Below, in pieces: positions 10,281 through 50,678 of a DNA stretch of 64,000 bases; position 1 is the stretch's first letter; each line of letters starts with the position of its first letter. Source of the stretch: Spirochaetota bacterium. GTDB taxonomy: Bacteria; Spirochaetota; UBA4802; UBA5550. Position numbers and translations under genes: made by a program. Below the pieces are notes generated by a model. It did no database searches. It was not told where the DNA came from and saw only the letters and a list, made by a program, of their open reading frames with translations. Location of the stretch: NCBI GenBank assembly GCA_016933025.1, contig JAFGBT010000006.1, forward strand, positions 155,078 to 219,077. Direction: 5' to 3'.

Positions 10281-10311
10281 CTGGCGAATCTCGCCCGGTT
10301 TAAAAACTAAC

Positions 10312-11328: not shown

Positions 11329-11417
11329 CAGTTATTCCATCCTAAAGCCAGGTGGATATCATACACTATATTATCGGCCTCACCCTCAAATTAACATTAT
11401 TAATATATCAAAGTCAA

Positions 11418-11480
11418 ACCAAAAATAGCCCCCCTCCGGCCTGCGGCCACCTCCCCCCATTAATGGGGGGAGGACGGGAA
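11418..11480. repeat. G/C-tract hairpin element in the fliF-fliG spacer (CCTCCCCCC ATTAAT GGGGGGAGG palindrome plus an AGCCCCCCTCCGG module)
   Basis: Read directly; related to the modular repeat family. Confidence 0.5.
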
Positions 11481-11485
11481 GGGGG

Positions 11486-21371: not shown

Positions 21372-21400
21372 AGTCAAAATAAGCGGCGCTTCACGCGCCG
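21372..21400 (-). terminator. rho-independent terminator candidate after the acyl-CoA dehydrogenase gene (GGCGCGTGAAGCGCC followed by a T-rich run, minus strand)
   Basis: Hairpin at 21385-21399 followed by TTATTTTG on the minus strand. Confidence 0.5.
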
Positions 21401-21429: not shown

Positions 21430-22587
21430 CTATACGTCGTAGCACCCGATCTTCCTCGATATGACAATCCGCTGGACTTCCGAGGTGCCCTCGCCGATGG
21501 TGAGAAGCTTGTAGTCGCGAAAGAAGCGCTCGATATTGTATTCCTTCATCAGGCCGTAGCCGCCGTGGAGCTGCACCGCCTCGTCGACCACGCAGCCCAT
21601 CACCTCAGAGCAGTAGAGCTTGGCCATGGCAGCCTCCTTGCCGAAGGGCCTCCCGGTATCCTTGAGCTTGCAGGCCTTGTAAAGGAGATTGCGCGCGGCC
21701 TCGATTTCCGTGGCCATGTCGGCCAGTTTGAAGGCGTTCACCTGAAACGTGGAGATCGGCTTGCCGAACTGCTTGCGCTCCTTCGCGTACTTCATCGCCA
21801 GCTCGTACGCGCCCTGGGCCCCGCCGAGCCCCATGGCAGCAATTGCCAGCCTGCCGTTGTCCAGGGTCTGAAGCATCTGGTGAAACCCCTCGCCCCGCCT
21901 TCCGAGAAGGTTCTCCTCCGGGACCCGGCAGTCGTCGAAGTAGAGCTCGCCGGTGTCAGAGGCGCGCCACATCATCTTTCCGGTCATCTTTTTCTGCGCG
22001 AAGCCCTTCGTCCCGTTCGGCACCAGGATGCAGGAGACCTCCTTCTTGCCGTCCGGCTTGGTCCCGGTGATGGACTGCACCGTGCAGACGCCCGCCATCC
22101 TGCTGGTCGAGTTTGTGATGAATATTTTGGAGCCGTTAATGACCCACTCGCCGCTCTCGAGTTTCGCGTTCGTTTTGCTCGCGCCCGCGTCCGAGCCTGC
22201 CTCCGGCTCGGTGAGGCCGAAGGAGGCCAGGATCTCTCCCCTGCAGAGCCGCGGGAGCCACTCCTCCCTCTGCTTCTCGTTCCCGTAATAGTAGATTGGC
22301 CCGATGCCGAGGGAATTGCCGGCCGCCACCGTGGCGCCGTGGGAACCGTCTATCCGGCATATCTCCTCAACGGCGACGCAGTAGGAGAGATAGTCCATGC
22401 CGGCGCCGCCCCACTTCTCCGGGACGTATATGCCGAAAAGGCCCATAGACGCCATCTTCTCCGTTATCTCGCAGGAGAACTCCTCCTTTTCGTCGAGCTC
22501 CCGCGCCTTCGGGCCGATCTCCTTCTCCGCAAACTCGCGCACGTTGTAGCGGAGCATCTTCTGCTCGTCGTTAAGCCAGAAGTCCAT
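21430..22587 (-). CDS. acyl-CoA dehydrogenase (catalytic Glu present: IGEGTSEVQ)
   Basis: Full ACAD architecture, 385 aa; C-terminal YEGT-type motif. Confidence 0.9.
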   Translation of the reverse strand: MDFWLNDEQKMLRYNVREFAEKEIGPKARELDEKEEFSCEITEKMASMGLFGIYVPEKWGGAGMDYLSYCVAVEEICRIDGSHGATVAAGNSLGIGPIYYYGNEKQREEWLPRLCRGEILASFGLTEPEAGSDAGASKTNAKLESGEWVINGSKIFITNSTSRMAGVCTVQSITGTKPDGKKEVSCILVPNGTKGFAQKKMTGKMMWRASDTGELYFDDCRVPEENLLGRRGEGFHQMLQTLDNGRLAIAAMGLGGAQGAYELAMKYAKERKQFGKPISTFQVNAFKLADMATEIEAARNLLYKACKLKDTGRPFGKEAAMAKLYCSEVMGCVVDEAVQLHGGYGLMKEYNIERFFRDYKLLTIGEGTSEVQRIVISRKIGCYDV

Positions 22588-22610
22588 GGTTGTCCTCCAT
22601 TGTTACGGCA

Positions 22611-22715
22611 TTCTTGACAATCCCCCTAAATGGGGCCGCCCCAAAAGTCTCCTGCGACGCCCCCCCAACCCCCCGGAGGGGGGCTTGTGAGACAGCCCCG
22701 TTGGGGGGCGGGACG
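22611..22715. repeat. G/C-tract modular repeat copy R3 (inverted orientation relative to R1)
   Basis: The reverse complement contains GGCTGTCTCACAAGCCCCCCTCCGGGGGGTTGGGGGGGCG, matching the start and second module of R1. Confidence 0.55.
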
Positions 22716-22725
22716 TCGGGCCTCA

Positions 22726-23316
22726 CTAGAAAGAAAACCCCTTCGGCAGCTGATCTGCCTCCGTCCCATCGGGCACCCATGCCAGGTCGAGAATGGTATA
22801 GGTGGGATCCAATGTTTGGAAGATGGGGACCACACGCATGCCCATTTTCGGCTCGCCGACCGAGAGGTAGCTCATCAGGATGGTGCAGACGCCGTCGAAT
22901 TCTATGTTGATAAACTTAATCGGCTTATCAAGAATATTAAAAGCGCCCGACCGCTCGCACACCATGAAGGTGTGGACCTTCGCGGTCTTCTTCGCGATGT
23001 TCGTCATGTCTATCGGCGTCATCTTCGCCAGGCAGTCCGGGCAGTGGATGCGGAACGGCTGGTAGATGGACCCTTTCGTCTCGCATTTCGGGTTGTCGCA
23101 ACGCGTCGCCATCAACCTGCCCTGGCTCAGGGACTCGAAGAAGAGCGCCTCACCGCCGTACGAATGCATATACGTCATATCGCGCGGGTTCGTCACTCCC
23201 ATCAGCTTCCAGGCGTCATCCGCGTTCCGGATCGGGGTATTTGGAGTAAAATGATGGAAGTCTCCCTTTATCTTGTACTGATTGTTTTTAACGTGCACCT
23301 GTCCTATCATACTCAT
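22726..23316 (-). CDS. DUF35 family protein (rubredoxin-like Zn ribbon plus OB-fold), thiolase/aldolase partner
   Basis: Zn ribbon RCDNPKCETKG...HCPDC followed by an OB-fold region; immediately downstream of a thiolase-like gene. Confidence 0.75.
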   Translation of the reverse strand: MSMIGQVHVKNNQYKIKGDFHHFTPNTPIRNADDAWKLMGVTNPRDMTYMHSYGGEALFFESLSQGRLMATRCDNPKCETKGSIYQPFRIHCPDCLAKMTPIDMTNIAKKTAKVHTFMVCERSGAFNILDKPIKFINIEFDGVCTILMSYLSVGEPKMGMRVVPIFQTLDPTYTILDLAWVPDGTEADQLPKGFSF

Positions 23317-23327
23317 GGCCCATCCTC

Positions 23328-24764
23328 CTACGCGTCCTTCTTAATGAGATTTTCGGGGTTCATCAATATCGTCGCCGTCACGTGCGAGCCGACGCCGGCA
23401 TGGCTGATTGCAAGACCGCGCTTTGCGCCCTTGACCTGAAGGTCCGTCCAGTCAGCGGGCTTCTGGCGGCCGAACGCCTTCCATCTCTTCTCGTCGCCGT
23501 GGACCTCCGCCCAGCGGTTCCAGAGATGGCACGCAATCTCGAACACCTGCATGATGCCGGTCGCGCCGACCGAGTGCATGCAGCCGATCAGTCCGCCGGA
23601 GATGTTTGACGGAAGCTTGCCCGGCTTGCCGGTTTTCGGGCTGGTGTGATAGCAGTCTCCTGACTCAACATAGTCGCGGCCGCAGCCGTAGGGCCGCAGC
23701 CCGATGTCCTCGTAGGTCTGTACGTCACTGATGGTGAAGGCGTCGTGCAGCTCGATGACGTCAAGGTCCTCGGTCGGATCCTTGATGCCGACCTGATTAT
23801 AGGCGTAGTACGCCGCCATACGGGCGGCCAGGAACCCGGTGAATCCCGGATAGCGCTCGCCGCCGGGGAATTTCTTGCCGAGGTCCTTGTACTGATCCTT
23901 GGTCTCGTTCGGCAGGAGCGGTATCTCCATGTCGCGCCGGTCCGCCGGCCGCAACGTGTGAGAACCCGCCGTCACCCATATCCGCAGCGGCTTGTGGGGA
24001 GCGTTCTTCGCGAGCTTCATCGCCGTCTCCTCATCGCAGAGAATTCCACACGAAGCGCCGACGCTCATCAGGCAGCAATCCAGAGCGCGAAGCGGGTGCG
24101 CCACCACCGGAGAGTTGAGCACGTCTTCAACCGTTATCTTCATCGGCCCGTGCGCGTAGGGATTCATGCGCGCGTAGCCGTGGTGTTTCACGGATATCTC
24201 CGCCAGGGTTCTCCGGAACGAGTCCTCCTCCTTGCCGAAGACCTTCCAGTACTTCTGCGCCATAACGGCATAGTAGCCCGTGTAAATATGGCCCAGCGGG
24301 GATTCCCAGTCCTTGTCGGCCGCGCATGATATGAGGAAGTTGCCCTCGTCCGTGGGGACCTCGTCCATCCGTTCCCAGCCCATGCAGAGCACGCAGTCGG
24401 AATAGCCGGATGCCACGGCCTTAACGCCCTCCCAGAGTGTTGTGCCGCCGGTCGCGCCGCCTGTTTTAACGCCGCAGTTGCCCAGCGGGTCGAGCCCGAG
24501 CCGGTCATGGATGACCGCCTCGCCGAGGAGCTGGTCGCCGAAATGGTCGGCAAAATGACCGTAGTAACAGGTGTGGATGTAACTCTTGAGCTCCGCCGGG
24601 GTCATGTCGATCATCTCCGCCGCCTGCGTGAGTGCATCGATGCAGAGCTCCTCCGTCCTTTTGCCCGGGAAGGCACGATCGAACTTCGACTGCCCCGCGG
24701 TCACCAGATAGACCGGCCGCATCAATTTAGGTATTGATAGTTGTCTGTCGCTGAATGTTATCAT
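23328..24764 (-). CDS. SCP2-type thiolase-like protein lacking the nucleophilic Cys (Ltp2-like retro-aldolase candidate)
   Basis: Thiolase fold (KTGGATGG...VASGYSDCVLCMGWERM; C-terminal ISGGLIGCMHSVGATG). Gly aligns with the Cys of paralog 30361-31518. Start uncertain (24764 or 24722). Confidence 0.75.
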   Translation of the reverse strand: MITFSDRQLSIPKLMRPVYLVTAGQSKFDRAFPGKRTEELCIDALTQAAEMIDMTPAELKSYIHTCYYGHFADHFGDQLLGEAVIHDRLGLDPLGNCGVKTGGATGGTTLWEGVKAVASGYSDCVLCMGWERMDEVPTDEGNFLISCAADKDWESPLGHIYTGYYAVMAQKYWKVFGKEEDSFRRTLAEISVKHHGYARMNPYAHGPMKITVEDVLNSPVVAHPLRALDCCLMSVGASCGILCDEETAMKLAKNAPHKPLRIWVTAGSHTLRPADRRDMEIPLLPNETKDQYKDLGKKFPGGERYPGFTGFLAARMAAYYAYNQVGIKDPTEDLDVIELHDAFTISDVQTYEDIGLRPYGCGRDYVESGDCYHTSPKTGKPGKLPSNISGGLIGCMHSVGATGIMQVFEIACHLWNRWAEVHGDEKRWKAFGRQKPADWTDLQVKGAKRGLAISHAGVGSHVTATILMNPENLIKKDA

Positions 24765-24854
24765 AAACCAAATACCTCGTGTATAAAATCTTTAACGTAA
24801 TATCGCATATCCGCCTGAAGGCGCGGTTGCGTTCCCGCGCCTTCAGGCGGAAGC

Positions 24855-25241
24855 CTATACTTCCACCTCCGCCTCGACCTTCTGGAGCACCTCGACGCCG
24901 GTCTGCCTGGTGACTTTCAGGTCGACCTTTGCCCTGTTGCCCTGTATGTCTGACACGGCGCCCTCTATCGATATCGTGTCCTCGAGCATCACCGGCGCGC
25001 TGAACCGGCACCTGATCTTCTTGAGCTTGCCCGGATCGCCCGCCCAGTCGGTGACGGTCTTTGCCGCAAACGCGAGGGTGCAGAGACCCTGTAAAATTGC
25101 TCCGCCCAGGCCGACCATCTTGCCGAAATCCGGGTCGATGTGGATCGGGTTGAAATCTCCTGACGCGCCGGCATAATATATGGCCCGGTATTTATCGACT
25201 TTCTCGCTGCCGCTGAATGTCTCTCCTTTTTCGATAGCCAT
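24855..25241 (-). CDS. MaoC-like (R)-specific enoyl-CoA hydratase, C-terminal hot-dog subunit
   Basis: Motif GDFNPIHID; start at the internal ATG with AGGAGG RBS. Confidence 0.75.
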   Translation of the reverse strand: MAIEKGETFSGSEKVDKYRAIYYAGASGDFNPIHIDPDFGKMVGLGGAILQGLCTLAFAAKTVTDWAGDPGKLKKIRCRFSAPVMLEDTISIEGAVSDIQGNRAKVDLKVTRQTGVEVLQKVEAEVEV

Positions 25242-25252
25242 GGGCGTTCCTC

Positions 25253-25690
25253 CTACTTTCTCACCACAAAAGTGTATAACCCCCGGCACACGCTCCTGCC
25301 GTGCTGGTTCTTCGAAATCCCCTCGATGGTTATAACATCGAGCTTCTCCTTGTTCCTGATATCGCTGATTTTCGCCGTCGTGGTGATGGCATCGCCGGCC
25401 TTCACGACCTCGAAGAATTCGAACTCCTGCTCGCCGTGGACCAGCATCGCCATGTTCAGGTTAAGCTCGCTGTCCAAGAATATTGGCTCGATCAGATACG
25501 CGCCGAACACGACCGCGAAGGTCGGCGGAGCAATGATCGCGCCATATTTCGATTTTTTCGCAAACGCCTCGTCCATGAAATGGGGATCCTGGTTCTTGAT
25601 GGCCTTGGCGTACTCCTTGATCTTGTCCTTGCTCACATCGTAGGTGTACGACGGATACTCCTTGCCGATGAACTTCGTGTCTATTGCCAT
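25253..25690 (-). CDS. MaoC-like dehydratase N-terminal-type hot-dog subunit
   Basis: Hot-dog fold with HGEQEFEF; pairs with the adjacent C-terminal-type subunit. Confidence 0.7.
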   Translation of the reverse strand: MAIDTKFIGKEYPSYTYDVSKDKIKEYAKAIKNQDPHFMDEAFAKKSKYGAIIAPPTFAVVFGAYLIEPIFLDSELNLNMAMLVHGEQEFEFFEVVKAGDAITTTAKISDIRNKEKLDVITIEGISKNQHGRSVCRGLYTFVVRK

Positions 25691-25710
25691 ATCGTTTACT
25701 CCTTCTCATT

Positions 25711-25750
25711 CCCCCCCTCTCACCGTGGGAGAGGGGGTTGGGGGGGTGAA
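25711..25750. repeat. short G/C-tract repeat copy (CCCCCCCTCTCACCGTGGGAGAGGGGGTTGGGGGGGTG)
   Basis: Matches modules of R2 and R7. Confidence 0.4.
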
Positions 25751-25753
25751 GCA

Positions 25754-26929
25754 TCATTTCCCTCCGTACTTCCTTATCAAGTCCTTGGCGATCAATATCC
25801 GCTGGATCTCCGACGTTCCCTCGCCGATCTCGCCAAGCTTGGCGTCGCGGTAAAGCCGCTCCACCGGGAACTCCTTGATGTACCCGTACCCGCCGTGGAC
25901 CTGGACCGCCATGCTCGAAATCTGCGTCGCCGCTTCGGAGGCCCAGACCTTGGCCACGGAGGCCAGCACGGCGGCCTCGGGGTCCTTCATCTGCTTGGCC
26001 CACGCCGCCTGATAGATGAGGAGGCGCGCCACGTCTGTCTGAATCATCATGTCCGCGATCTTGAATGAAATCTCCTGATAGCGGTTTATCGGCCTGCCGA
26101 AGGCCTTCCGCTCCTTGGAGTACTTGTTTGCCAGCTCCAGGCACTTCGCCGCGATCCCGAGGCACACGGTGGCCATGCCTATCCTGCCGTACTCGAGGGT
26201 CTGCATCGCCTGGATAAAGCCCCTCCCCACCTCGCCGAGAACGGCGCCCGCGGGCACCTCGCAATCCTCGAAGATTAGCTCTGCCGTGGGCGAGCCGCGG
26301 AAGCCCATCTTGTCGAAGGGCTTGCTCACGGAAAACCCCTTCGTGCCCTTGTCAACCAGGAAACAGGTAACGCCTGCGCCCGGCCCCTTCTCCCGGTCAT
26401 TGTAAGCGAAGACCAGTGCCACGTCCGCGATCGTCGCGTTGGTTATGAAGGTCTTGGTGCCATTGATTACCCACCGGTCCCCCTTCTTCACGGCGTTCGT
26501 CTTGATGGAGGCCGCGTCGGTGCCGGCCTCCGGCTCGGTTAGACCGAAACAACCTAAGATCTCGCCCTTGATGATGCCGGGTATATACTTCTTTTTCTGG
26601 GCCTCGCTGCCGAAGAACCGAAGCGGCATGCCGAAGAGGCCTGACGAGGCCCCGCAGGAAAGGAAAGTCGAGGCGCACGCCTTGGCAACCTCCTCCCCCG
26701 CTATCGCCTGGCTGATCAGATCAAGGTCGGTGCCGCCGTACGCCTCCTCGTGGCCCATGCCGAGATAGCCGATATCCGCGAGCTTTCTGATGTTCTCCTT
26801 GATGAGTTTGTCAACGTCATCATGGGACGCCTGGTCGAGCATCTGGGCGCGCGGCTCGATCTCCTTCACGCAGAATTTTACAAAATTTTCCTTTATTGAT
26901 AACTGCTCGGATGTCAGATCGTAATTCAT
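25754..26929 (-). CDS. acyl-CoA dehydrogenase (catalytic Glu present: IGEGTSEIQ)
   Basis: Full ACAD architecture, 391 aa. Confidence 0.9.
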   Translation of the reverse strand: MNYDLTSEQLSIKENFVKFCVKEIEPRAQMLDQASHDDVDKLIKENIRKLADIGYLGMGHEEAYGGTDLDLISQAIAGEEVAKACASTFLSCGASSGLFGMPLRFFGSEAQKKKYIPGIIKGEILGCFGLTEPEAGTDAASIKTNAVKKGDRWVINGTKTFITNATIADVALVFAYNDREKGPGAGVTCFLVDKGTKGFSVSKPFDKMGFRGSPTAELIFEDCEVPAGAVLGEVGRGFIQAMQTLEYGRIGMATVCLGIAAKCLELANKYSKERKAFGRPINRYQEISFKIADMMIQTDVARLLIYQAAWAKQMKDPEAAVLASVAKVWASEAATQISSMAVQVHGGYGYIKEFPVERLYRDAKLGEIGEGTSEIQRILIAKDLIRKYGGK

Positions 26930-26975
26930 GGTCTCATTCTCCTCTCTGCTGTTTGGTTGCCCCGCCTCTCCTGTG

Positions 26976-28127
26976 TTAGAACATGCTCAGAATCCGGGAT
27001 ATGATAAAGCGCTGGATTTCCGACGTGCCGCCGCCTATCTGCGCCAGCTTGGCGTCGCGGAGGAACCGCTCGATCGGATAATCGTGGATGTAGCCGTATC
27101 CGCCGAAGACCTGGGTCGCCTCGCTGGCGGCCTTCACGCCCCAGTCGCCGACCAGCGCCTTGGCGATGGAGGTATGCATGTGGTTAAGGGGCTTCCCTGA
27201 ATCTTTGTCGAAAGCGACACGATAGACCACCATCTTCGCCGCTTCCTTTATGATCCTGAGGTCCGCCAGCTTGTGCTGGATCGCCTGAAACGAGCCGATC
27301 GGCTTGTCGAACTGCACCCGCTCCTGCGCGTACTTCGTGCACTCCTCTATCGCGAACTGCATTCCGCCAACGAAGGGGGAGAGGAGCGAGCTCCGGTCCC
27401 AGGAGAGCGTCTCATGGGCGTACTCCATCCCCTTCCCGACCTCGCCGATCAGGTTCTCCTCCGGGACCTCGCAGTTGTCGAGGAACACCTCGGAAGTCGA
27501 CGAGGCCCGTACGCCCATTTTGTGAAACGGCTTGCCCGTGGAAAAGCCTGGGAACCCGCGCTCCACGATGAAGGCGGCGATGCCGTTATGCTTCAGCTTT
27601 TTATCGATCGTCGCGTAGACCACGCATATGTTGCAGACCGGCGCGTTGGTTATGAAGGTCTTGGAGCCGTTGAGCATCCAGCGGTCGCCCTTCTTGACCG
27701 CTGTGGTCGACATTGCGGCTGCGTCGGAACCCGACCCGGGCTCGGTGAGACCCATGCAGCCTATCCACTCGCCGCTTGCAAGCTTGGGCACGTATTTCTT
27801 TCTCTGAGAGTCGTTGCCCTGCTTGTACAATGTGTCGGTGCAGAGATAGGTGTGTGCGCCCAGCGCCAGCAGGTGCCCCTGGTCGACGCCGGCGTGGCCG
27901 AGGGCCTCCCCCGCGAGGCAGCAGGTGACGACATCCGCACCAGAGCCGCCGAGCTCTTCAGGGAACGGAAGCCCCAGAAGCCCCATCTCCCCCAGTTTGC
28001 CCCAAACTTCAGGTGAAAACTCCGACTTGAGATCGGCCTCCTCGACGAGCGGAACGATCTCCTTCTTCGCGTACCGGTACACCGTCTCTCTGAACATCAA
28101 TTGCTCTTCAGTAAACCCAAACTCCAT
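26976..28127 (-). CDS. acyl-CoA dehydrogenase-like subunit with Gly replacing the catalytic Glu (IGGGTSEIQ)
   Basis: ACAD fold; motif substitution read directly; start at the internal ATG with AGGAGG RBS. Confidence 0.85.
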   Translation of the reverse strand: MEFGFTEEQLMFRETVYRYAKKEIVPLVEEADLKSEFSPEVWGKLGEMGLLGLPFPEELGGSGADVVTCCLAGEALGHAGVDQGHLLALGAHTYLCTDTLYKQGNDSQRKKYVPKLASGEWIGCMGLTEPGSGSDAAAMSTTAVKKGDRWMLNGSKTFITNAPVCNICVVYATIDKKLKHNGIAAFIVERGFPGFSTGKPFHKMGVRASSTSEVFLDNCEVPEENLIGEVGKGMEYAHETLSWDRSSLLSPFVGGMQFAIEECTKYAQERVQFDKPIGSFQAIQHKLADLRIIKEAAKMVVYRVAFDKDSGKPLNHMHTSIAKALVGDWGVKAASEATQVFGGYGYIHDYPIERFLRDAKLAQIGGGTSEIQRFIISRILSMF

Positions 28128-28184
28128 GCGCTCCTCCTTTGTAATACGGTCCGGGACGGACAACGCGCTCCGTCACCAACCCGG

Positions 28185-28811
28185 CTATTTCTTCTTTATG
28201 ACCAGATCGTTAATATGCTTCATGATCTTTTTCACGTAATCCTCATAATTGAAGGCGTTGTTGTCTATGACGTACTGTATAATCATGCCCTGGATGATCG
28301 AGATTATCACGGCCGCCGTGTAATCCAGGTCCATCTTCATGAAGATGCCCTTGTCAATCCCCTCGTTGAGGATCTTTATGATCTCGTCCCGGTAGCTCTT
28401 GAAGAGCTTGATATTCGCCCGCTTCATCCGCTCGTTCTTGTTGACCTGGGTCCAGAAATCGATGACGATGTAGAAGTAGTCTTTCTCGTTCTTCACCAGG
28501 TCAAAGGCCTGCATCATGAAGATGTTGAGCTTCTCTCTCGGGTCTTCCGCCTTGCCAATGGCCTTGTTCAGGATGGCCGTCATGTTGGTGTTGATTTCCT
28601 TTAACAGATTAAGGAGAAGGTCCTCCTTGTTCTTGAAATAGTAGTGAACCAGGCCTGTGGACAGACCCGCCTCACGCGCGATATCGCGGATGGTGAAATC
28701 ATAATACCCCTTCTGTCCCACGACCTTATATGCTGCGCGCGTCAGCTGCCCTCGCCTCATATTCATGATGTCGCTCTTGGTTTTCTCGTTCATGGCTGCA
28801 ATCACTCCCAT
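28185..28811 (-). CDS. TetR/AcrR family transcriptional regulator
   Basis: HTH TIRDIAREAGLSTGLVHYYFKNKEDL. Confidence 0.85.
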   Translation of the reverse strand: MGVIAAMNEKTKSDIMNMRRGQLTRAAYKVVGQKGYYDFTIRDIAREAGLSTGLVHYYFKNKEDLLLNLLKEINTNMTAILNKAIGKAEDPREKLNIFMMQAFDLVKNEKDYFYIVIDFWTQVNKNERMKRANIKLFKSYRDEIIKILNEGIDKGIFMKMDLDYTAAVIISIIQGMIIQYVIDNNAFNYEDYVKKIMKHINDLVIKKK

Positions 28812-28865
28812 TCTTATTTATTCCTCTCAAACGCGCCGCTCAATCACCGGCGACAAATTTCATCA

Positions 28866-29738
28866 TCACTCAAGGACCTCGACTCCCGCGCCCTCGAGCA
28901 GGGCGGCGCGTCCGCTCCACTCGTTCTCCTGCACCCACCGGCCGTCCGATCCCGGGGGATATTCCCCGAGAAAGGCTTTCTCCTCGTTCGGCCGCGTCCC
29001 GCCTACGATGACGGCCCTTCCCGCAGCTCGCTCAACCCTGAACGGGTCGATGATAATGAAGCCTATATCATCATGCTCGAACTCTCCCCTGTTCGCATCG
29101 AGGACGCCGTGCATCCGTTCGCACACGCACTCACCGGGAGCCGCGTCGAGGAGCGTGCGCTCCCCTGAAAAAAGGGAGCGACCGGCGCAGTAACGAAGCA
29201 GGTCGTCGAAGCCGTCGGTCGCCAGAATCAGCCTGCTGTCACGGTTTGCCACTCGGTGCTCGGTGACGCCTGCGATCTCCATGCTCCTCCCCGCAAAATT
29301 CATGTCTGGCGCCGTCCGAAATTCAACGGCGCCGCCGGCAGGATCGACCAGCGTCACCACGCTGTCCCCGCCGTGTGACACGATCAGGGTCACCCCCGCT
29401 TCATCGTTCGCGAGGGCGACGCAGCTCAGGGTGGTCTTGTGCTGAAATTTCTGTTCCGAATATACCTCGCCGTTTATCAGCTCCTTCCACTCCTCCGCGG
29501 TCCCGGGCGCGCCGCTCCGGACCAGGCACTTCCACAACCGCCGCAGCAGGTCGCGCGACGCCCAGGGAAAACGCTCGGTCCCGTCCGCCACGGCGAATAC
29601 CATCCTCCCGAAATCGAGGTACAGGCAATCGCCGTTCCCGTATCCGCTCCGAATCTTTTCTGTGCCCGTTATGACCGACCCGCATGCCGCGCCTGTCTGC
29701 CTCACGATGCGCCTCGATGGACTGATCTCTATCGCCAC
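28866..29738 (-). CDS. PP2C/PPM-like phosphatase-fold protein (degenerate motifs), function unknown
   Basis: FAVADGTER, SHGGDS, LILATDGFDDLL resemble PPM motifs; weak assignment. Confidence 0.4.
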   Translation of the reverse strand: MAIEISPSRRIVRQTGAACGSVITGTEKIRSGYGNGDCLYLDFGRMVFAVADGTERFPWASRDLLRRLWKCLVRSGAPGTAEEWKELINGEVYSEQKFQHKTTLSCVALANDEAGVTLIVSHGGDSVVTLVDPAGGAVEFRTAPDMNFAGRSMEIAGVTEHRVANRDSRLILATDGFDDLLRYCAGRSLFSGERTLLDAAPGECVCERMHGVLDANRGEFEHDDIGFIIIDPFRVERAAGRAVIVGGTRPNEEKAFLGEYPPGSDGRWVQENEWSGRAALLEGAGVEVLE

Positions 29739-29751
29739 AGGCCCCCTGCCG

Positions 29752-30216
29752 TCAGTCTATGACCCTGAAAAACTCTATGTCCCGGATGCTCCCCTTCGGG
29801 TTCATTGAAAAGACCGGCTCGACACGGGCGCCGATCCTGATCTTCTTCTCGTCCTCAACGCTGATATAATGCTGGAAAAGCGTGTCCGCTCCGTCCAGCC
29901 TGATGAAGCCGTATCCGTAGGGCACGGGCTTCTGATGACCCGTCTCCGGATCAATGAACGCGAACCGGAGGATCGTAAAGGTGCCGATGACGCCTCCCGG
30001 TCCCACCTCGACCCAGTCGTTCATCTCCACAAAGCAGTCGCCGCAGACGCCGCGCGGGGGAATGTAGACCTTTTTGCATTTCGGGCACCTGATACCCATG
30101 AACCGCCGGTTGTCCCGTATCTCGGTGAAAAATTTGCTCCCGTGCATCCCGATTGAATAGGTGAAGGGCTGCACCGCGTCGCCTGACTCAATAATGATAT
30201 GATTGCTGTCTGCCAT
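29752..30216 (-). CDS. DUF35 family protein (Zn ribbon plus OB-fold)
   Basis: CPKC...CGDC ribbon; OB-fold C-terminal half; GGAGG RBS at the trimmed start. Confidence 0.8.
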   Translation of the reverse strand: MADSNHIIIESGDAVQPFTYSIGMHGSKFFTEIRDNRRFMGIRCPKCKKVYIPPRGVCGDCFVEMNDWVEVGPGGVIGTFTILRFAFIDPETGHQKPVPYGYGFIRLDGADTLFQHYISVEDEKKIRIGARVEPVFSMNPKGSIRDIEFFRVID

Positions 30217-30240
30217 GATATTTCCTCCACTTTGCTCCAA

Positions 30241-30352
30241 TCTTTTCTCTTAAGCCCCCTCCGGGCGTTGCACTGAACGGTTCAACAGGCTTGTCCTGAG
30301 CTTGCCGAAGGGCTCACCACAGGCCTGTCGAAGTGGGGTTTGGGGGGATGGT
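30241..30352. repeat. G/C-tract modular repeat copy R5
   Basis: AAGCCCCCTCCGGG ... GTGGGGTTTGGGGGGATGG modules. Confidence 0.5.
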
Positions 30353-30360
30353 TCTCAGAA

Positions 30361-31518
30361 TCATTTCGGCTTCTTCCTGCCGTGAAGTATCATGTCTGTC
30401 CACCAGCACCCGCCGAATCCTGTGCTGAAGGCGAAATTTACGTCCGGCACCTGCCGGCCCTCGGCCTTACCCATCACCTGCATCGCGGCCTCTGCGCACC
30501 GGATAAGCCCGGTCGCGCCGATCGGGTTGCAGGATATAACGCCGCCGGACGGGTTAATGGGGAGCTCACCCCCCATGTCGGTATTCCCGTCCCAGATGTA
30601 CTGCGGCGCCTCGCCCGGGCCGACGATTCCCATGTCCTCTATCCAGATGAGCCCGCCGAACGAATAGGGCTGGTACAGCTCGATCACGTCCAGCTCCTTC
30701 CGGGGCTCTTTGATGCCGGTTTTCTTCCATATCTCCTGCGCGCCCTCCCGCATGCTGGTGAGGCGGCCGTAATCGGCGTCCCCCAGGTAGGTGTAGGAGT
30801 GACGCGCCGCGGTCGCCCATATCCAATCCGGCTTCGGCGCGATCTTCTCCGCGAGTTCCCCGCTCGCCATGATGACCGCGCAGGCGCCGTCCGTGCGCGG
30901 ACAGACGTCGAGTAGATGTATCGGGTCCGCCAGCATCGGCGACGCCAGGACCTCCTCCAGAGCCACCTCCTTGCGGAGCTGGGCGTGGGGATTGTTCATC
31001 GCATGCCTGCGGTCCCGCACGCTGACGCGCGCGCCGTCCCGATCGGTCGCGCCGTACCGTGCCATGTAGGCCTGCGCCTCGGCGGCAAGGCCCGATATGG
31101 CGCCGGCAAACACCAGGCGGTCCCATATCGGATCGAACGCCGTGGTGATGGCGCCGGTCGTGTCCGACTCTGAATTCTTCTCCCAGCCGATTATCAAAAC
31201 TTTATCGAACATGCCCGACGCCACAAGATGGTACCCGCCGATCGCCACGGTGCACCCGGTCGTCCCGCCGGTCGTGAGCTTGATGATCGGCTTCATGGTC
31301 CCGCCGGAGCCGTCAACGCTCCAGCAGTCGACATAGTTTATTCCCTCGAAATGGTCCATGTTGCCAATGACGACGGCGTCGATATCCTTCATTTTCAGGT
31401 CAGCATCTTGAAGGGCGCGCACCACCGCCTCGTTTATCAGCTCCTGCCCGTTGACGTCGGGGCGATGGCTCTTATGGAACGTCTGGCCGGTTCCTACAAT
31501 CGCAACTCGTTTTCCCAT
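30361..31518 (-). CDS. SCP2-type thiolase-like protein, subfamily A (Cys present at the nucleophile position)
   Basis: TTGGTTGCTVAIGG...LVASGMFD...IGWEK; C-terminal GGVISCNPIGATG. Confidence 0.85.
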   Translation of the reverse strand: MGKRVAIVGTGQTFHKSHRPDVNGQELINEAVVRALQDADLKMKDIDAVVIGNMDHFEGINYVDCWSVDGSGGTMKPIIKLTTGGTTGCTVAIGGYHLVASGMFDKVLIIGWEKNSESDTTGAITTAFDPIWDRLVFAGAISGLAAEAQAYMARYGATDRDGARVSVRDRRHAMNNPHAQLRKEVALEEVLASPMLADPIHLLDVCPRTDGACAVIMASGELAEKIAPKPDWIWATAARHSYTYLGDADYGRLTSMREGAQEIWKKTGIKEPRKELDVIELYQPYSFGGLIWIEDMGIVGPGEAPQYIWDGNTDMGGELPINPSGGVISCNPIGATGLIRCAEAAMQVMGKAEGRQVPDVNFAFSTGFGGCWWTDMILHGRKKPK

Positions 31519-31529
31519 GGCTTCTCCTC

Positions 31530-32672
31530 CTACCTGTCCCCCAGGAGCCAGACGCAGTGCGACTGGCCGCCCAGACCGTTCACCCCGTGGACGAGGCCCG
31601 TTCTCGCCTTCTTCACCTGAAAGCCGCCCGCTTCGCCCCTGATCTGCCTGACCACGGCGGCCATGCTGTACAGACCGGCGGCGATAACCGGATGACCCGA
31701 CAGGAGCCCGCCCGAAGGATTTACCGGAAGCCTGCCGTCAATATTGTACTCCCCTTTTTCAAGATGCCTTCCCGCCGACGATTCATCGGCGAGGCCCATC
31801 TCCTCGAGCCACATGAGCTCCTGGTAGGTAAAGGCGTCGTGTATTTCAGCAACATCGATCTCCGTGCGCGGGTCTTTTATCCCCGCCATCGCGAATGCCT
31901 TCTTCGCCGCCTCGGTGAGCGACCTGGCTCGCGAAAGATCCCGGTCACCGAAGAAAAAAGAGTCGGCGCAGAGAGATACTCCCCTGATCCACACCGGCTT
32001 CTTCCTGAATTTCTTCGCAACCGACTCATGGGCAATGACAACCGCCGCGCACCCGTCTGAGACCGGCGAGCAGTCGAGCTTTCGGAGCGGATCTGCTATC
32101 ATCTCGGAATCCAGGACGTCTTTAACCGTGATATCCATGGGGAGCTGGGCGTGAGGGTTCTTGAGCGCATTGCCGTGGTTCTTCACCGACACCATCGCCG
32201 TCTGCTCGCGCGTTGTCTTCGTCCGGTGCAGGTAGGCATTCGCCTGCATCGCGCACGCGGTAATCATGTCCATACCGAGCATCCGCTCGTAGATCGGGTC
32301 GAAGGCGCAGTTCGTTATCAGGCTCGACACGCTCTCCGATCCCTTGGAATGGCCCGTCACCAGGGTTGTTTTGTACGATCCCGAGAGGCACCTTGCCATG
32401 CCGTAAAAGGCGCCGTACGTTCCGTCGCCCTCCACGCAGGAGACGTTTTTGTGCGCGGCGCCGCTCGCGTCGCCGACGGCCATGCAGGATATCGTTCGCC
32501 CGTCCCAGAAATCGCTTGATGTGGTGACGACATTGTCGATGTCGTCGATGGTCATGCCGGCGTCCTCGAGAGCCCCGTTCACGGCCTGCCATGCCATGTC
32601 GGCAAAGGTCTCACGTACCTTCCTCTTCTCGATCTTGACCGTCCCGACGCCTACTATCGCTGCTCTGTCCAT
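31530..32672 (-). CDS. SCP2-type thiolase-like protein, subfamily B
   Basis: Thiolase fold (YGMARCLSGSYKTTLVTGHSKG...NPSGGLLSGHPVIAAG); 11-nt gap to the subfamily A partner. Confidence 0.85.
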   Translation of the reverse strand: MDRAAIVGVGTVKIEKRKVRETFADMAWQAVNGALEDAGMTIDDIDNVVTTSSDFWDGRTISCMAVGDASGAAHKNVSCVEGDGTYGAFYGMARCLSGSYKTTLVTGHSKGSESVSSLITNCAFDPIYERMLGMDMITACAMQANAYLHRTKTTREQTAMVSVKNHGNALKNPHAQLPMDITVKDVLDSEMIADPLRKLDCSPVSDGCAAVVIAHESVAKKFRKKPVWIRGVSLCADSFFFGDRDLSRARSLTEAAKKAFAMAGIKDPRTEIDVAEIHDAFTYQELMWLEEMGLADESSAGRHLEKGEYNIDGRLPVNPSGGLLSGHPVIAAGLYSMAAVVRQIRGEAGGFQVKKARTGLVHGVNGLGGQSHCVWLLGDR

Positions 32673-32687
32673 GTCTGCGCTCCTTTT

Positions 32688-33155
32688 CTATCGTACCGGC
32701 CTGAAATGGGATATATCGCGGATGGTCCCCTTCCGCTCTTCGGCGAAGACCGCCTTCACGCGCATGCCGATGCTCACGTCTTCCGGCTTAACATCGCCCA
32801 GATAATGGAGCAGGGCCGTGTCCGCGCCGTCCAGCTTCACCAGCCCCCAGATGACCGGCGCCTTCAGCTCCCGGGGAATTGACGCGAATTGCCGCCGGGC
32901 GACCGTGAACGAGAGAAGCGTCCCCTCATCGGATACATCCACCCACTCGGTATCGCCGGTGAAGCAGGCCGGGCAGCTCTTGCGCGGCGGGAGATACGTC
33001 TTCCCGCAGGTCATGCATCTCGTCGCGATGATTTTCTTCTCGTCCCTGAGAGAGATGAAAAACCTGGACGCCGTGTCCCCCGCCCACCATGAATAGGGGA
33101 TATTGATCATGCTCTCGTATACCATCGGCTCAATGCCCTTGAATTGGTCTGTCAT
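32688..33155 (-). CDS. DUF35 family protein (Zn ribbon plus OB-fold)
   Basis: CMTC...CPAC ribbon; OB-fold. Confidence 0.8.
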   Translation of the reverse strand: MTDQFKGIEPMVYESMINIPYSWWAGDTASRFFISLRDEKKIIATRCMTCGKTYLPPRKSCPACFTGDTEWVDVSDEGTLLSFTVARRQFASIPRELKAPVIWGLVKLDGADTALLHYLGDVKPEDVSIGMRVKAVFAEERKGTIRDISHFRPVR

Positions 33156-33175
33156 GATGATTCTCCTTGTAATAC

Positions 33176-33272
33176 CTCACCCCCTTCCCCCTCTCCTCAA
33201 AGGAGAGGGGGAGAAGAAGAATATCGCATTCTTCTCCTCCCCTTCTTCCTGTGGGAGAAGGGGCCGGGGGAT
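33176..33272. repeat. G/C-tract modular repeat copy R6 (CCCTCTCCT CAAA GGAGAGGG and CCCCTTCTTCC TGTG GGAGAAGGGG hairpins)
   Basis: Read directly; same module style as R2 and R7. Confidence 0.5.
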
Positions 33273-33277
33273 GATGT

Positions 33278-34048
33278 CTATCTTCCTATAATATACCGGT
33301 GCGGGTCCACCTGCTCGCGGAGGATCCGCAGTTCATCCGCGTGCGGGGGCTCGGTATCCGTGAGCCTGTCGGCCCACATCAGCTCGAACCCGCAGTTCGC
33401 CTGGATGTCCTCCCGGTCATAGCCGGGATTGACGCTCAGAACCTTCATCCGCTTCGATATCTCATCGAACCCCATGATCGCCATGTTGGTGATGATCCGG
33501 TAGGGCCCGGTACCCTTCGGCAATCCCGCCTCGTAGCGGGAATTCCCGCCCTGCAGATAACCGGGCGAGGTGATGAAATCGCACTTTTCGGTGAATCGCT
33601 TGGCGTCCTGCGGGGTCATCATCATGGTCCTCCAGCAGAGGGAGGCCAGGTCGTTCGCCCCGCCCGATCCCGGAAAGCGGACCTTCGGCCTCGCGTGGTT
33701 ATCGCCGATCATCGTCGAGTTGATGTTGCCGTACATGTCGATCTGCGCGCCGCCCAGGAAGGTGTAGTCCACCATCCCGCGCTGGCATGTCTCCATCACG
33801 TCCGGCATGGAGCTGGCGAGTATCGCCTTGTGAAAGGTCCGCGAATCGCCGACGGATATCGGCATCGAGGGCAAAAACGGCGCCACGCCGCCCGCCTCGA
33901 ACATGATGGTGAGATTGGGCGAATGCGTCTTCTGCGCCAGCATAGCGGCCGCGCACGGGGCGCCGGTGCCGACCACGACCGTCGCGCCGTCCTCCAGGTT
34001 GCGCGCCGCAACGCATATCATCAATTCCATAGGGTTATAGTCTGCCAT
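33278..34048 (-). CDS. CoA-transferase subunit B (glutaconate/3-oxoacid CoA-transferase family)
   Basis: Family I CoA-transferase beta-subunit conservation (GGAQIDMYGNIN, SGGANDLAS). Confidence 0.8.
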   Translation of the reverse strand: MADYNPMELMICVAARNLEDGATVVVGTGAPCAAAMLAQKTHSPNLTIMFEAGGVAPFLPSMPISVGDSRTFHKAILASSMPDVMETCQRGMVDYTFLGGAQIDMYGNINSTMIGDNHARPKVRFPGSGGANDLASLCWRTMMMTPQDAKRFTEKCDFITSPGYLQGGNSRYEAGLPKGTGPYRIITNMAIMGFDEISKRMKVLSVNPGYDREDIQANCGFELMWADRLTDTEPPHADELRILREQVDPHRYIIGR

Positions 34049-34049
34049 C

Positions 34050-35054
34050 TCATTTCTCCTTGTTGTTCGCGACCAGGTTCTCGATGGCGCGAAGCTTCAG
34101 GATCCTTTCGATCCCGCCGTTCAGCTCCAGGTATTCGTAAAAGTCCTTCGTGTCGAGGATTTGCTTCCGGTAAAATTTCCTGAACTCTTCCGGGTCCTTC
34201 TCAACGGTGAGCCACTCCCTCAGGTGCTCCTCGTCGGAAAAATACTCGTAGGGCATGTTGCCGGGGTAGCTCCCGAAGGGGACCTCGACCACTGCGTCGA
34301 CGCACCAGAAGGGAATGAAGGTCGCATGGGGCGTATGCCTGATTTCATCGTTCGGTATGATCCGCTCAGTGGTCAGCACAACCCGCTTCGACGCCCGCGC
34401 AAGGTCCTGGTCGGACACGGACGCGCCTAAAACGCGGGCATTGCCGTACACGTCGCACTCATGCACGTGGATGGCGGCAAAATCCGGATAAAGCGCCGGG
34501 TATGCCGCGTATTTCTGCCCGGTAAAGGGACACAGTATCTCCTTCGCCGCGCTGTAGTTAAAGGTGTCGGTGCCGAGAATGTTGCGCGCCGGCAAAAAAG
34601 AGAGCCCCATCGCCGCCGCCTTGAGCCGCCACGAGAGCGTCGCGTTGGTCCACTCGGTGAGCTTGATATTCCCGCTCTCGACGGCGCGGCGGGAACTCGG
34701 CGAAAGGCCCCGCGCCTCCAGTCCTATGATGTAGGCGATGTCGAGACGGTCGATGCAGCCGCCCCCGACCAGGATCTGCATGTCATGGGTCGAGGTATGG
34801 CCGGCAAAGGCCAGATTTTTCTTCCCCTGACGCGCGATCTCATGAAGAACGGCGGTCGGGATCCTGTTGGCCCCGAACCCGCCGATGGCTATGTAGTCCC
34901 CGTCTTTCAACAGGGTCTTCACGGCCTCCCGCACCGTAGTGACCTTGTTCACCATGGCGCGCGACTTCTGCCTGAAAAATTGACGCGCGGCGTCGGCATC
35001 CGGGTCGGAGAACAACTGGTTCCGGCCTTCCTTCAATTCAACTGGATTGCTCAT
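34050..35054 (-). CDS. CoA-transferase subunit A (GctA-like)
   Basis: GctA-like length and motifs (IAIGGFG...); 1-nt gap to subunit B. Confidence 0.8.
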   Translation of the reverse strand: MSNPVELKEGRNQLFSDPDADAARQFFRQKSRAMVNKVTTVREAVKTLLKDGDYIAIGGFGANRIPTAVLHEIARQGKKNLAFAGHTSTHDMQILVGGGCIDRLDIAYIIGLEARGLSPSSRRAVESGNIKLTEWTNATLSWRLKAAAMGLSFLPARNILGTDTFNYSAAKEILCPFTGQKYAAYPALYPDFAAIHVHECDVYGNARVLGASVSDQDLARASKRVVLTTERIIPNDEIRHTPHATFIPFWCVDAVVEVPFGSYPGNMPYEYFSDEEHLREWLTVEKDPEEFRKFYRKQILDTKDFYEYLELNGGIERILKLRAIENLVANNKEK

Positions 35055-35105
35055 AATTCCGCTCCTTGGCTCTTAAGGTTTTCCCGGTACTCAATCCATT
35101 CCGGA

Positions 35106-39345: not shown

Positions 39346-39356
39346 GTCCCGGCTCC

Positions 39357-41760: not shown

Positions 41761-41772
41761 TGTTCTTCCTCC

Positions 41773-42918: not shown

Positions 42919-43019
42919 TACCAATCCTCCTCTCAATTCTTTTACGGCAACGGATCATGATAATACCACCTCGCATAACAGATTTGACATGGGCTTTGAT
43001 ATTGCCGCCTCGTGAATCT

Positions 43020-46205: not shown

Positions 46206-46291
46206 AATCTATAATCCTTTTGATAATTAAATCTTAAAGTATAAGAGATAAAATATATAGAGCATGGCGGATGCATCCGCCGCTATATTTT

Positions 46292-46747: not shown

Positions 46748-46820
46748 CGATATATAATGTATTTATATCCTATATATCAAAAAAACGAGGCTGTCGTCTG
46801 GAATGATAATTCCGGAAGGA

Positions 46821-47666: not shown

Positions 47667-47701
47667 GGCACCCTCCTTTCAACCCTGACGTTATGATATC
47701 G

Positions 47702-49519: not shown

Positions 49520-49565
49520 GTGATTATCCCTGACGTACGATATAACGCTACAGCGGGCGTGTCAA

Positions 49566-50669: not shown

Positions 50670-50678
50670 GAGCCGCCG

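Follow-up and report, generated by a model that had tools for sequence, protein, structure and literature searches.

The stretch of DNA analysed here, referred to as the window, comprises 64,000 nucleotides from a Spirochaetota bacterium (GenBank assembly GCA_016933025.1, contig JAFGBT010000006.1, positions 155,078 to 219,077 of the forward strand) and contains a run of seven open reading frames (ORFs): three for acyl-CoA dehydrogenases (ACADs), two for hot-dog proteins, one for a thiolase-fold protein that we call THLx and one for its DUF35 neighbour, DUF35x. A preliminary description, made from the sequence of the window, had treated all seven as a single module resembling the igr pathway of actinobacterial cholesterol side-chain degradation. 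The seven ORFs lie on the minus strand, with coordinates identical with those of that description, and their length, strong domain matches and conserved orthologues show that they are real genes and exclude chance. The host is an uncultured anaerobic bacterium of Spirochaetota type, and the earlier statement that the context is not actinobacterial holds. The genes and features concerned, in window positions, are as follows.

21384-21400, minus strand: hairpin resembling a terminator, with a T-rich tail, behind ACADc; the THLx-DUF35x-ACADc unit probably ends here
21430-22587, minus strand: ACADc, a short-chain (butyryl-CoA-type) ACAD, with the base of medium-chain ACAD (MCAD) type in IGEGTSEVQ; third gene of module 2
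22726-23316, minus strand: DUF35x, a divergent stand-alone DUF35 protein with a zinc ribbon (C73-x4-C78...C92-x2-C95), an OB fold and an N-terminal extension
23328-24764, minus strand: THLx, a 478-amino-acid thiolase-fold protein, NCBIfam NF004982/PRK06365
24811-24850, minus strand: perfect 17-bp hairpin in the HotC-THLx spacer; probable transcript boundary or processing site between the modules
24855-25241, minus strand: HotC, a MaoC/HadB-like hot-dog subunit with the hydratase-2 catalytic motif GDFNPIH
25253-25690, minus strand: HotN, a HadA-like hot-dog subunit (FAS1_DH_region) without the catalytic motif
25754-26929, minus strand: ACADb, with the MCAD-type base in IGEGTSEIQ; always immediately downstream of ACADa
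26976-28127, minus strand: ACADa, in which Gly366 stands where MCAD has Glu376 and an invariant Asp244 (in L[SE]WDRS) occupies the helix-G base position of isovaleryl-CoA dehydrogenase (IVD) and long-chain ACAD (LCAD)
28185-28811, minus strand: TetR-family regulator, always preceding ACADa-ACADb
28866-29738, minus strand: orf290, conserved, with a weak SpoIIE/PP2C match; module 1
29752-30240, minus strand: DUF35_1, a canonical DUF35 protein (zf-ChsH2 plus OB_ChsH2_C)
30361-31518, minus strand: THL1, thiolase-like and Cys-less, in which a Tyr (YQPY replacing HDCF) occupies the position of the Ltp2/Sal catalytic base
31530-32672, minus strand: THL2, the Cys-less thiolase-like partner of THL1, with HDAF and the GHP His kept
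32688-33155, minus strand: DUF35_2, a canonical DUF35 protein
33278-35054, minus strand: glutaconate-type CoA-transferase, made up of CoATb (33278-34048) and CoATa (34050-35054), with its catalytic Glu kept (FEAGG)
35106-36947, minus strand: acyl-CoA ligase (AMP-binding), with which module 1 begins, as it also does in loci L074 and L075

The likeliest start of ACADa is the ATG at 28127, since its orthologues are of 383 amino acids, and that of HotC is the ATG at 25241. Comparison of gene neighbourhoods at approximately 75 loci, designated below by L numbers, placed these genes in two modules, and the seven genes straddle the boundary between them: module 1 occupies 24855-36947 and module 2 occupies 21430-24764. 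The two are independent of each other and have genomic contexts of their own. The adjacency of THLx and DUF35x is invariant in 57 genome loci, only approximately nine of which have ACADa and ACADb, and the pair stands without the ACAD/hot-dog unit at more than 40 loci. Conversely, in L074 and L075, which were sampled by ACADa, the genes run in the order ligase, CoAT-A, CoAT-B, DUF35, THL, THL, DUF35, orf286, TetR, ACADa, ACADb, HotN and HotC, i.e. the order of the window from 36947 down to 24855, and are followed by unrelated genes, with no THLx. In L073 (1055-13059), TetR, ACADa, ACADb, a ligase, HotN and HotC adjoin genes for a carboxyltransferase, a biotin carboxylase, a BCCP, a crotonase and AtuA. 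As a whole, L073 resembles the clusters for acyclic terpenes and leucine (Atu/Liu), and it contains no thiolase-like genes. The orthologues of orf290, whose place in module 1 is always between DUF35_1 and TetR, are 52-59% identical with it, the one in L074 being of 286 amino acids.

A gene for an XRE-HTH/cupin regulator lies immediately upstream of THLx at approximately 25 loci, and in Spirochaetota loci it sits between the hydratase gene and THLx. In the window itself the 90-bp spacer between HotC and THLx (ΔG −43.6 kcal/mol, z −7.15) holds a hairpin that follows directly after the HotC stop codon and has no T tract. We considered whether this hairpin is a repeated REP-like element and rejected the idea, as it is present in a single copy in the window. 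Because each module occurs without the other, because a regulator gene separates them in Spirochaetota and because the spacer forms this hairpin, we regard them as two separate modules lying end to end.

The preliminary description had instead combined an α2β2 ACAD in which ACADa is the dead subunit, a MaoC hydratase of heteromeric type, and THLx-DUF35x in the part of an Ltp2-type retro-aldolase, which together would take a short acyl unit off a steroid or isoprenoid side chain. Although the seven genes are co-directional both in the window and in the Smithella locus L008, and one ACADa/ACADb locus has an Atu-like context, the occurrence of the ACAD/hot-dog unit without THLx and of THLx-DUF35x without that unit contradicts a single module of this kind. 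In addition, we found no steroid-ring or side-chain genes among the annotated genes of the window or in nine annotated THLx neighbourhoods, in which the neighbours of THLx belong to short-chain and amino-acid-derived acyl-CoA metabolism. We therefore consider this arrangement very unlikely, an assessment that the HDAF motif of THLx and Asp244 and the FAD motifs of ACADa, described below, also support. The igr analogy offers a helpful lead on module 1, but does not describe the seven-gene block correctly.

THLx matches the NCBIfam family NF004982 (PRK06365), a 'thiolase domain-containing protein' family without a functional name, with 702.1 bits over residues 1-470 (cut-off 695). Matches to Pfam Thiolase_C_1 and Thiolase_N and to thiolases of known structure, and Foldseek TM scores of 0.72-0.83 (normalized to target length), all assign it the thiolase fold. 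Our AlphaFold2 (AF2) model, built from a shallow alignment, has a pLDDT of 66.6 and a pTM of 0.77, with active-site loops below 50, and was used for fold assignment only. Despite this fold, the catalytic cysteines are gone. The nucleophilic Cys is replaced by Gly103, the second Gly of KTGG (KTGG-ATGG, compared with EAAC-ASG in the archaeal thiolase 6esq and NNNC-STG in the zebrafish SCP2-thiolase 6hsj), which is invariant in 22 orthologues, and Ala342 (H340-D-A342-F) stands where the HDCF motif has its acid/base Cys. In contrast, both histidines of the enolate-stabilizing oxyanion hole, His340 and His397 (GCMHSVGATG), are kept and are invariant in the same 22 orthologues. The preliminary description was thus correct in stating that THLx lacks the nucleophile, although the Cys/Gly column that it quoted (TTGGTTGCTV) sits four residues past the nucleophile position. 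The protein that it used as a Cys-bearing reference, THL1 (30361-31518), has Gly at the true nucleophile column, and hence is not an authentic thiolase.

A search of 1.84 billion cluster representatives, together with a motif table, placed THLx in a Cys-less clade of proteins of 420-490 amino acids with 36-47% identity, which have in common the motifs GGATGG, HDA[FY] and GH and, within the catalytic loop at the C-terminus, an S454-H455-A-G that is specific to the clade. Across 13 sequences of this wider clade His397 is present in all and His340 in ten, whereas 40 canonical relatives of 385 amino acids have Cys at both columns. Further clade-specific conserved residues are Tyr161, Arg272, Asp275, Arg276 and Tyr305-Pro306, the last two inside an insertion of approximately 30 residues; THLx has two insertions, at approximately 280-310 and at 415-440.

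A Gly at the nucleophile position and a DUF35 partner gene are also features of Ltp2 and Sal, thiolase-fold retro-aldolases in which the corresponding motif reads YDHF and YDCY respectively, with an essential Tyr (Tyr294 of Ltp2, Tyr302 of Sal), and the Y302F and C304A/S variants of Sal are inactive (PMC12329534). This likeness speaks for the Ltp2-type function assigned to THLx in the preliminary description, but the HDAF motif of THLx, with no Tyr and with Ala342 at the position of Sal Cys304, speaks against it. Moreover, ordinary thiolases come ahead of Ltp2 and Sal, by sequence as well as by fold: with the THLx model as the Foldseek query, SCP2 and archaeal thiolases came top, Ltp2 28th and Sal 46th, and the phmmer alignment of THLx with Ltp2 (6ok1) spans only THLx residues 102-266, Tyr344 of Ltp2, its second catalytic residue and the counterpart in function of Sal Cys304, lying beyond it.

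A lost nucleophile beside retained oxyanion-hole His is what decarboxylating enzymes of the thiolase superfamily show (compare KS-Q/CLF and TbSLP). THLx might accordingly be an enolate-forming enzyme of another kind, i.e. a decarboxylase of the malonyl-, methylmalonyl- or glutaconyl-CoA type or an acyl-CoA isomerase, a suggestion that the glutaconate type of the neighbouring CoA-transferase would also suit. We think this rather improbable, as the decarboxylating ketosynthase (KS) domains that are known have Gln or Ser at the nucleophile position, where THLx has Gly, and most of the neighbourhoods imply no carboxylated substrate. TbSLP itself decarboxylates malonyl-CoA weakly (PMC12329534).

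The assignment of the adjacent gene to DUF35 holds at the level of profiles, although the 196-amino-acid DUF35x is below the Pfam thresholds for both domains, scoring 15.9 and 14.2 bits (E 0.011 and 0.041) against cut-offs of 23.2 and 27.1 for zf-ChsH2 (PF12172) and OB_ChsH2_C (PF01796) respectively. A profile of 13 DUF35x sequences matches the solved DUF35 proteins 3irb (E 3.6e-7) and 6esq_E (E 5.6e-5), and hhalign aligns DUF35x with a canonical DUF35 of the window at 97.6% probability. The zinc-ligand cysteines C73, C78, C92 and C95 are invariant in the orthologues, with an unusual C-x4-C...C-x2-C spacing. Residues 1-56 form a family-specific extension that is kept in all orthologues, with P44, R45, H51, Y53, G54 and E56 invariant, and this extension could lend residues to the active site of THLx. 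Wherever a locus includes the DNA behind THLx, DUF35x is the next gene, which confirms that the Cys-less thiolase-fold protein has a dedicated stand-alone DUF35 gene as its partner.

THLx is widely distributed and very highly conserved. Its homologues in the protein database are 77-91% identical with it and come from Spirochaetota, Deltaproteobacteria, Desulfobulbales, Krumholzibacteria, Planctomycetes, FCB-group bacteria, Thermoplasmatota and Promethearchaeota; it is also present in Syntrophales, and in all occurs in many anaerobic bacteria and archaea, including Asgard archaea. The 57 THLx loci came from a scan of one genome per species and are mostly 75-93% identical, with two outliers at 63-67%, and the mean column identity across 22 diverse orthologues is 84%. 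Between this bacterium and archaea of the Thermoplasmatota and Promethearchaeota the identity is approximately 78%. Such conservation across phyla and domains implies strong constraint and, as the identity of THLx is far above that expected from vertical descent, suggests that the THLx-DUF35x pair has probably spread horizontally.

This conservation also bears on the idea that THLx-DUF35x is non-catalytic, and acts as a scaffold or as a module that binds or channels acyl-CoA and organizes ACADc and other enzymes. THLx has no canonical residue for thiolysis or for aldol cleavage, and DUF35 is a documented scaffold, for example in the archaeal thiolase/HMGCS and KT/KCR/MaoC complexes (PMC12329534). 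However, an identity of this order across phyla and domains, together with histidines and loop motifs of the active site that never vary, suggests that this site is under constraint, and we regard a purely structural role as improbable.

The neighbours of THLx point to short acyl-CoA molecules. In nine further genomes whose THLx neighbourhoods we annotated with Pfam, the recurring partners are a short-chain ACAD, a two-subunit CoA-transferase and a crotonase, and one operon consists of six genes, THLx, DUF35x, ACAD, CoAT-A, CoAT-B and ECH. ACADc, whose nearest solved relatives are Bcd/SCAD enzymes, lies behind DUF35x in approximately 27 of the 57 loci, and orthologues of CoATa and CoATb adjoin THLx-DUF35x-ACAD in other genomes. 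None of the nine neighbourhoods contains a 3-hydroxyacyl-CoA dehydrogenase of the 3HCDH family, and the gene set thus resembles that of β-oxidation but for the oxidation step; L010 has a separate upstream set with a putative SDR (by sequence inspection) and a Cys-containing thiolase (confirmed with Pfam). In Desulforhopalus the neighbours are a VOR-type 2-oxoacid:ferredoxin oxidoreductase, a branched-chain aminotransferase and a Liv-type transporter, and elsewhere histidine-utilization genes and peptidases are found. In L015 (6444-17800) the trio THLx-DUF35x-ACADc is followed by genes for a carboxyltransferase, a crotonase, two HMGL-like proteins and a MerR regulator. This locus is a liu-like leucine/isovalerate cluster, which also encodes a putative acyl-CoA ligase of 560 amino acids (by inspection), and MerR regulators of this type of cluster follow the trio in several Smithella-type loci. 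The Asgard loci L061 and L063 have a stand-alone BKACE gene between THLx-DUF35x and a thiolase-like pair with two DUF35 genes, together with two crotonases.

Several of these contexts would suit a THLx-DUF35x pair that cleaves acetoacetyl-CoA or 2-methylacetoacetyl-CoA, i.e. a retro-Claisen reaction without a Cys acyl-enzyme, for example by direct attack of CoA aided by DUF35x. They include the butyryl-CoA-type ACAD, the glutaconate/acetoacetate-type CoA-transferase and the crotonase nearby, the acetoacetyl-CoA-synthetase-like genes that adjoin THLx in L039 and L007 (identified by sequence inspection only), the HMG-CoA-lyase-like genes of L015 and the acetoacetate-releasing BKACE of the Asgard loci, and both oxyanion-hole histidines are kept. 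Nevertheless we know of no thiolase that functions without its nucleophilic Cys, both catalytic cysteines are absent across the clade, and the 3-hydroxyacyl-CoA dehydrogenase that would make the 3-keto substrate is found in none of the nine annotated neighbourhoods. For these reasons cleavage of this kind seems to us unlikely. A role of THLx as a substitute for HMG-CoA lyase in a liu-like pathway was also considered and is weakened by the two HMGL-like proteins that L015 itself encodes beside THLx.

Turning to the genes of module 1, all three ACADs are full-length by Pfam, and ACADa and ACADb are adjacent and strictly co-conserved in every architecture seen, so that the ACAD pair of the preliminary description stands. 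The reported motif difference is also correct: ACADa reads IGGGTSEIQ where ACADb and ACADc read IGEGTSE[IV]Q, and the Glu of MCAD type on the J-K loop is missing from ACADa, as a dead igr-like subunit would require. In contrast with such a dead subunit, however, ACADa has intact FAD motifs and, elsewhere in the protein, a candidate base, the invariant Asp244, at the position of IVD Glu254 and LCAD Glu261. This comes near to what the preliminary description had itself named as evidence against a dead subunit, namely that a base is kept at another site. The best solved matches of ACADa are Bcd and IVD structures, IVD being second-best, and in the alignment with IVD IGG366GTSE pairs with IGAGTSE and LSWD244RS with LDYERV. 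In IVD (Glu254) and LCAD (Glu261/291) the base is established to lie on helix G instead of on the J-K loop (PMC10925408). ACADa thus follows IVD/LCAD in having a small residue where MCAD has Glu376 and an acidic one at the position of IVD Glu254, although the latter is Asp and not Glu. The motifs L[SE]WDRS and IGGGTSE occur together in 117 of 120 ACADa homologues from the database, the Asp at the helix-G position being found in 120 of 120, and Asp244 and Gly366 being invariant wherever the residues are present; these homologues keep the FAD-contact motifs TEPxxGSD and KTFITN, and QxxGGxG is seen in the ACADa sequence itself.

With Asp244 at the helix-G base position and the FAD motifs intact, ACADa is probably an active dehydrogenase of the IVD/LCAD type with an unusual Asp base, and not a FadE28-like subunit. 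As in FadE28-FadE29 (ChsE1-ChsE2), which are of the α2β2 type, ACADa and ACADb are encoded by an adjacent, co-conserved gene pair with the J-K loop Glu in one member only, but unlike that system ACADa retains FAD-binding motifs and a candidate base, and both proteins are full-length. ACADa shares the acidic helix-G residue and the missing Glu376 with IVD and LCAD, but differs from them in that a second ACAD gene, ACADb, always accompanies its own. With the NCBIfam models for heteromeric subunits (IpdE2 and PimC/PimD) these ACADs score far below the cut-offs, and ACADa and ACADb each score approximately 320-330 bits (E ~1e-95) with the homotetrameric Bcd and IVD structures.

The split MaoC hydratase of the preliminary description is confirmed as two hot-dog proteins with the catalytic Asp/His in HotC only. 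GDFNPIH of HotC aligns with GDLNPIH of HadB, and the motif is absent from HotN, which matches HadA/FAS1_DH_region. Among solved structures both are nearest to mycobacterial proteins, HotC to HadB at E 4e-15 and HotN to HadA-like subunits at E 9e-18, whereas ChsH1/ChsH2 score approximately 7e-6. A split double hot-dog with the D/H motif in one subunit is common to HadAB/HadBC and ChsH1-ChsH2, but HotN/HotC are closer to HadAB: ChsH2 and Shy are fused to a DUF35 domain, whereas HotC, at 128 amino acids, has no C-terminal domain, and the DUF35 genes are separate.

None of the five thiolase-like proteins of the window has the nucleophilic Cys. The four besides THLx form two adjacent pairs, THL1/THL2 (30361-32672) and THL3/THL4 (40561-42936), in each of which one member has Tyr at the Ltp2/Sal base position, YQPY in THL1 and YDPA in THL3 (40561-41760), both with Asn replacing the GHP His; the partners read HDAF (THL2) and SDHA (THL4). 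THL1 matches Ltp2 (6ok1) over its full length with an E-value of 2e-29 and is closer to the Ltp2/Sal family than is THLx, and pairing of the THL1/THL2 type recurs in L074 and, at 50% and 43% identity, in the Asgard locus L061. On this sequence evidence THL1 appears a better aldolase candidate than THLx for the ACADa/ACADb and hot-dog unit. Ltp3 and Ltp4, of actinobacterial C24-branched sterol side-chain degradation, are encoded by paired Cys-less thiolase-like genes with an adjacent DUF35 gene and are proposed to form a heteromeric aldol-lyase. We take THL1/THL2 and THL3/THL4 to resemble these genes in their arrangement; host and gene context differ. Adjoining THL3/THL4, a gene at 37918-39453 encodes an N-terminal DUF35 OB domain fused to BKACE (Kce-like, 272 bits, cut-off 382).

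The CoA-transferase subunits CoATa and CoATb have glutaconate CoA-transferase 1poi as their best solved match (E 1e-39 and 1e-45). The possibility that they are an AibA/AibB-like 3-methylglutaconyl-CoA decarboxylase, with THLx as an HMG-CoA-synthase analogue in isovaleryl-CoA biosynthesis, was rejected in view of this match and of the FEAGG Glu, which is kept here and lost in AibB. The carboxylase genes of Atu/Liu type in L073, a single locus, would fit a 3-methyl-branched substrate of module 1, derived from isoprenoids or leucine. A branched substrate, akin to the hindered or tertiary carbon of the preliminary description, is therefore plausible for the ACAD/hydratase part, given the IVD/LCAD type of ACADa and the L073 context, but the steroid proposed there finds no support in the gene contexts.

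Our favoured reading of the locus as a whole, which we advance tentatively, is that of two modules end to end, not one igr-like operon, with THLx-DUF35x acting as a non-thiolytic lyase. Module 1 would be a 'dehydrogenate, hydrate, cleave' set. Its substrate would be activated by the ligase and the CoA-transferase, ACADa, with its putative helix-G base of the kind typical of enzymes for such substrates, would oxidize a β-branched or bulky acyl-CoA beside ACADb, a conventional Glu-base ACAD, and HotN/HotC would perform a HadAB-like (R)-specific hydratase step; the likeliest cleaving enzyme is the Cys-less THL1/THL2 pair with the two DUF35 proteins. Module 2, THLx-DUF35x-ACADc, would be a self-contained trio of strict anaerobes of both domains, serving amino-acid or short-chain-acid catabolism. 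Here the adjacent short-chain ACAD and a hydratase would make a short 3-hydroxyacyl-CoA, which we infer to undergo retro-aldol cleavage by THLx and DUF35x into acetyl-CoA and a small aldehyde or ketone. Because Gly occupies the nucleophile position, the oxyanion hole is kept, Ltp2 and Sal provide a precedent and no 3HCDH gene lies nearby, THLx is, by analogy, most likely to be a non-thiolytic, enolate-forming C-C lyase of short acyl-CoA substrates.

Several observations weigh against this reading. THLx lacks the Tyr that is essential in both characterized thiolase-fold aldolases, and a replacement base is only hypothetical. No aldehyde- or ketone-processing enzyme recurs beside THLx in the neighbourhoods compared, and many of these have no hydratase. 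The contexts with a butyryl-CoA-type ACAD, a CoA-transferase, acetoacetyl-CoA synthetase and liu-like genes fit cleavage of acetoacetyl-CoA equally well, and the active-site loops of the AF2 model are of low confidence. For module 1, Asp is unusual as an ACAD base, and, as part of a heteromer with ACADb, ACADa might have little activity or a regulatory role. Finally, the independence of the modules is compatible with functional cooperation where they adjoin.

A stronger form of the proposal, in which THLx-DUF35x would be a new class of C-C lyase in the thiolase superfamily that depends on neither Cys nor Tyr, has spread horizontally among strict anaerobes of both domains, including Asgard archaea, and bypasses both the NAD-dependent dehydrogenase and the thiolase by cleaving 3-hydroxyacyl-CoA from short or branched acyl-CoAs directly, appears to us doubtful; in it, H51, Y53 and E56 of DUF35x might partly supply the catalytic residues.

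Set beside the thiolase-fold systems already characterized, THLx-DUF35x combines familiar and new features. The superfamilies of all parts are known, and THLx falls in a database family that is named but has no assigned function; among the papers available to us, a search covering DUF35, thiolase-like proteins, Smithella/Syntrophus and BKACE found none on the THLx family. The steroid side-chain retro-aldolases Ltp2-ChsH2 (6OK1) and Sal-Shy (9MYR) share with THLx the SCP2-type fold, the Gly at the nucleophile position and the DUF35 partner gene, and have neighbouring genes for an ACAD and a MaoC-type hydratase, as in this window. They differ in having YDHF/YDCY where THLx, without Tyr and without an equivalent of Cys304, has HDAF, in a DUF35 that is fused to the hydratase instead of stand-alone with a unique N-terminal extension, and in their length (approximately 390-400 compared with 478 amino acids with two insertions); they also match THLx more weakly than do true thiolases, and the context of THLx is short-chain and amino-acid catabolism in anaerobes.

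The closest solved relatives of THLx, by sequence and fold, are instead the archaeal thiolase/HMG-CoA synthase/DUF35 complex (6ESQ/6ET9) and the fatty-acid synthase complex KT/DUF35/KCR/MaoC of Sulfolobus. In these, as for THLx, a thiolase-like gene is immediately followed by a DUF35 gene, and MaoC-type hot-dog proteins are possible complex partners, but their thiolases have both cysteines and perform Claisen chemistry, whereas THLx has neither Cys. TbSLP of Trypanosoma brucei (5AB4-7) resembles THLx as a thiolase fold without the nucleophilic Cys and with no assigned physiological reaction, but it has YDCF, with both Tyr and Cys, and no DUF35 partner (PMC12329534), in contrast with the HDAF and obligate DUF35 neighbour of THLx. 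What is new is the catalytic configuration of THLx, without Cys, without Tyr and with three conserved histidines (340, 397 and 455). The DUF35x variant with its N-terminal extension is new as well, as are the distribution of the pair among anaerobes of both domains and the degree to which it is conserved there.

Complexes of thiolase-fold and DUF35 proteins are an emerging platform for C-C chemistry, which includes thiolysis, HMG-CoA synthesis, Friedel-Crafts acylation and steroid aldol cleavage. In this context THLx-DUF35x is a pair under very strong constraint in dozens of anaerobic lineages, annotated everywhere as 'acetyl-CoA acetyltransferase'. If THLx is a lyase, metabolic reconstructions in which it serves as a thiolase, for syntrophs and for archaea of sediments, contain an error at that step. 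If it is moreover a lyase independent of Cys and Tyr, it provides a shortcut in β-oxidation and the redox bookkeeping of syntrophic and amino-acid-fermenting metabolism changes. In addition, the Cys-less thiolase-like heteropairs with Tyr and the Asp-base ACAD family of the window are leads on how anaerobes handle β-branched acyl-CoA without carboxylation.

Elsewhere in the window there are genes for flagellar proteins, GMC oxidoreductases, an SDR, regulators and a further ligase. The flanking genes, among them fliH, fliG and fliF at 9393-13186, are syntenic with loci L002, L004, L005 and L054 of metagenome-assembled genomes of Spirochaetota/Leptospirales, a synteny that assigns the window to this lineage. 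At 44688-54281 lie genes for two FAD oxidoreductases of the GMC family, an SDR, an AraC regulator and a PAS/SpoIIE signalling protein, a set that may oxidize an alcohol or hydroxy acid and so feed the acyl-CoA modules.

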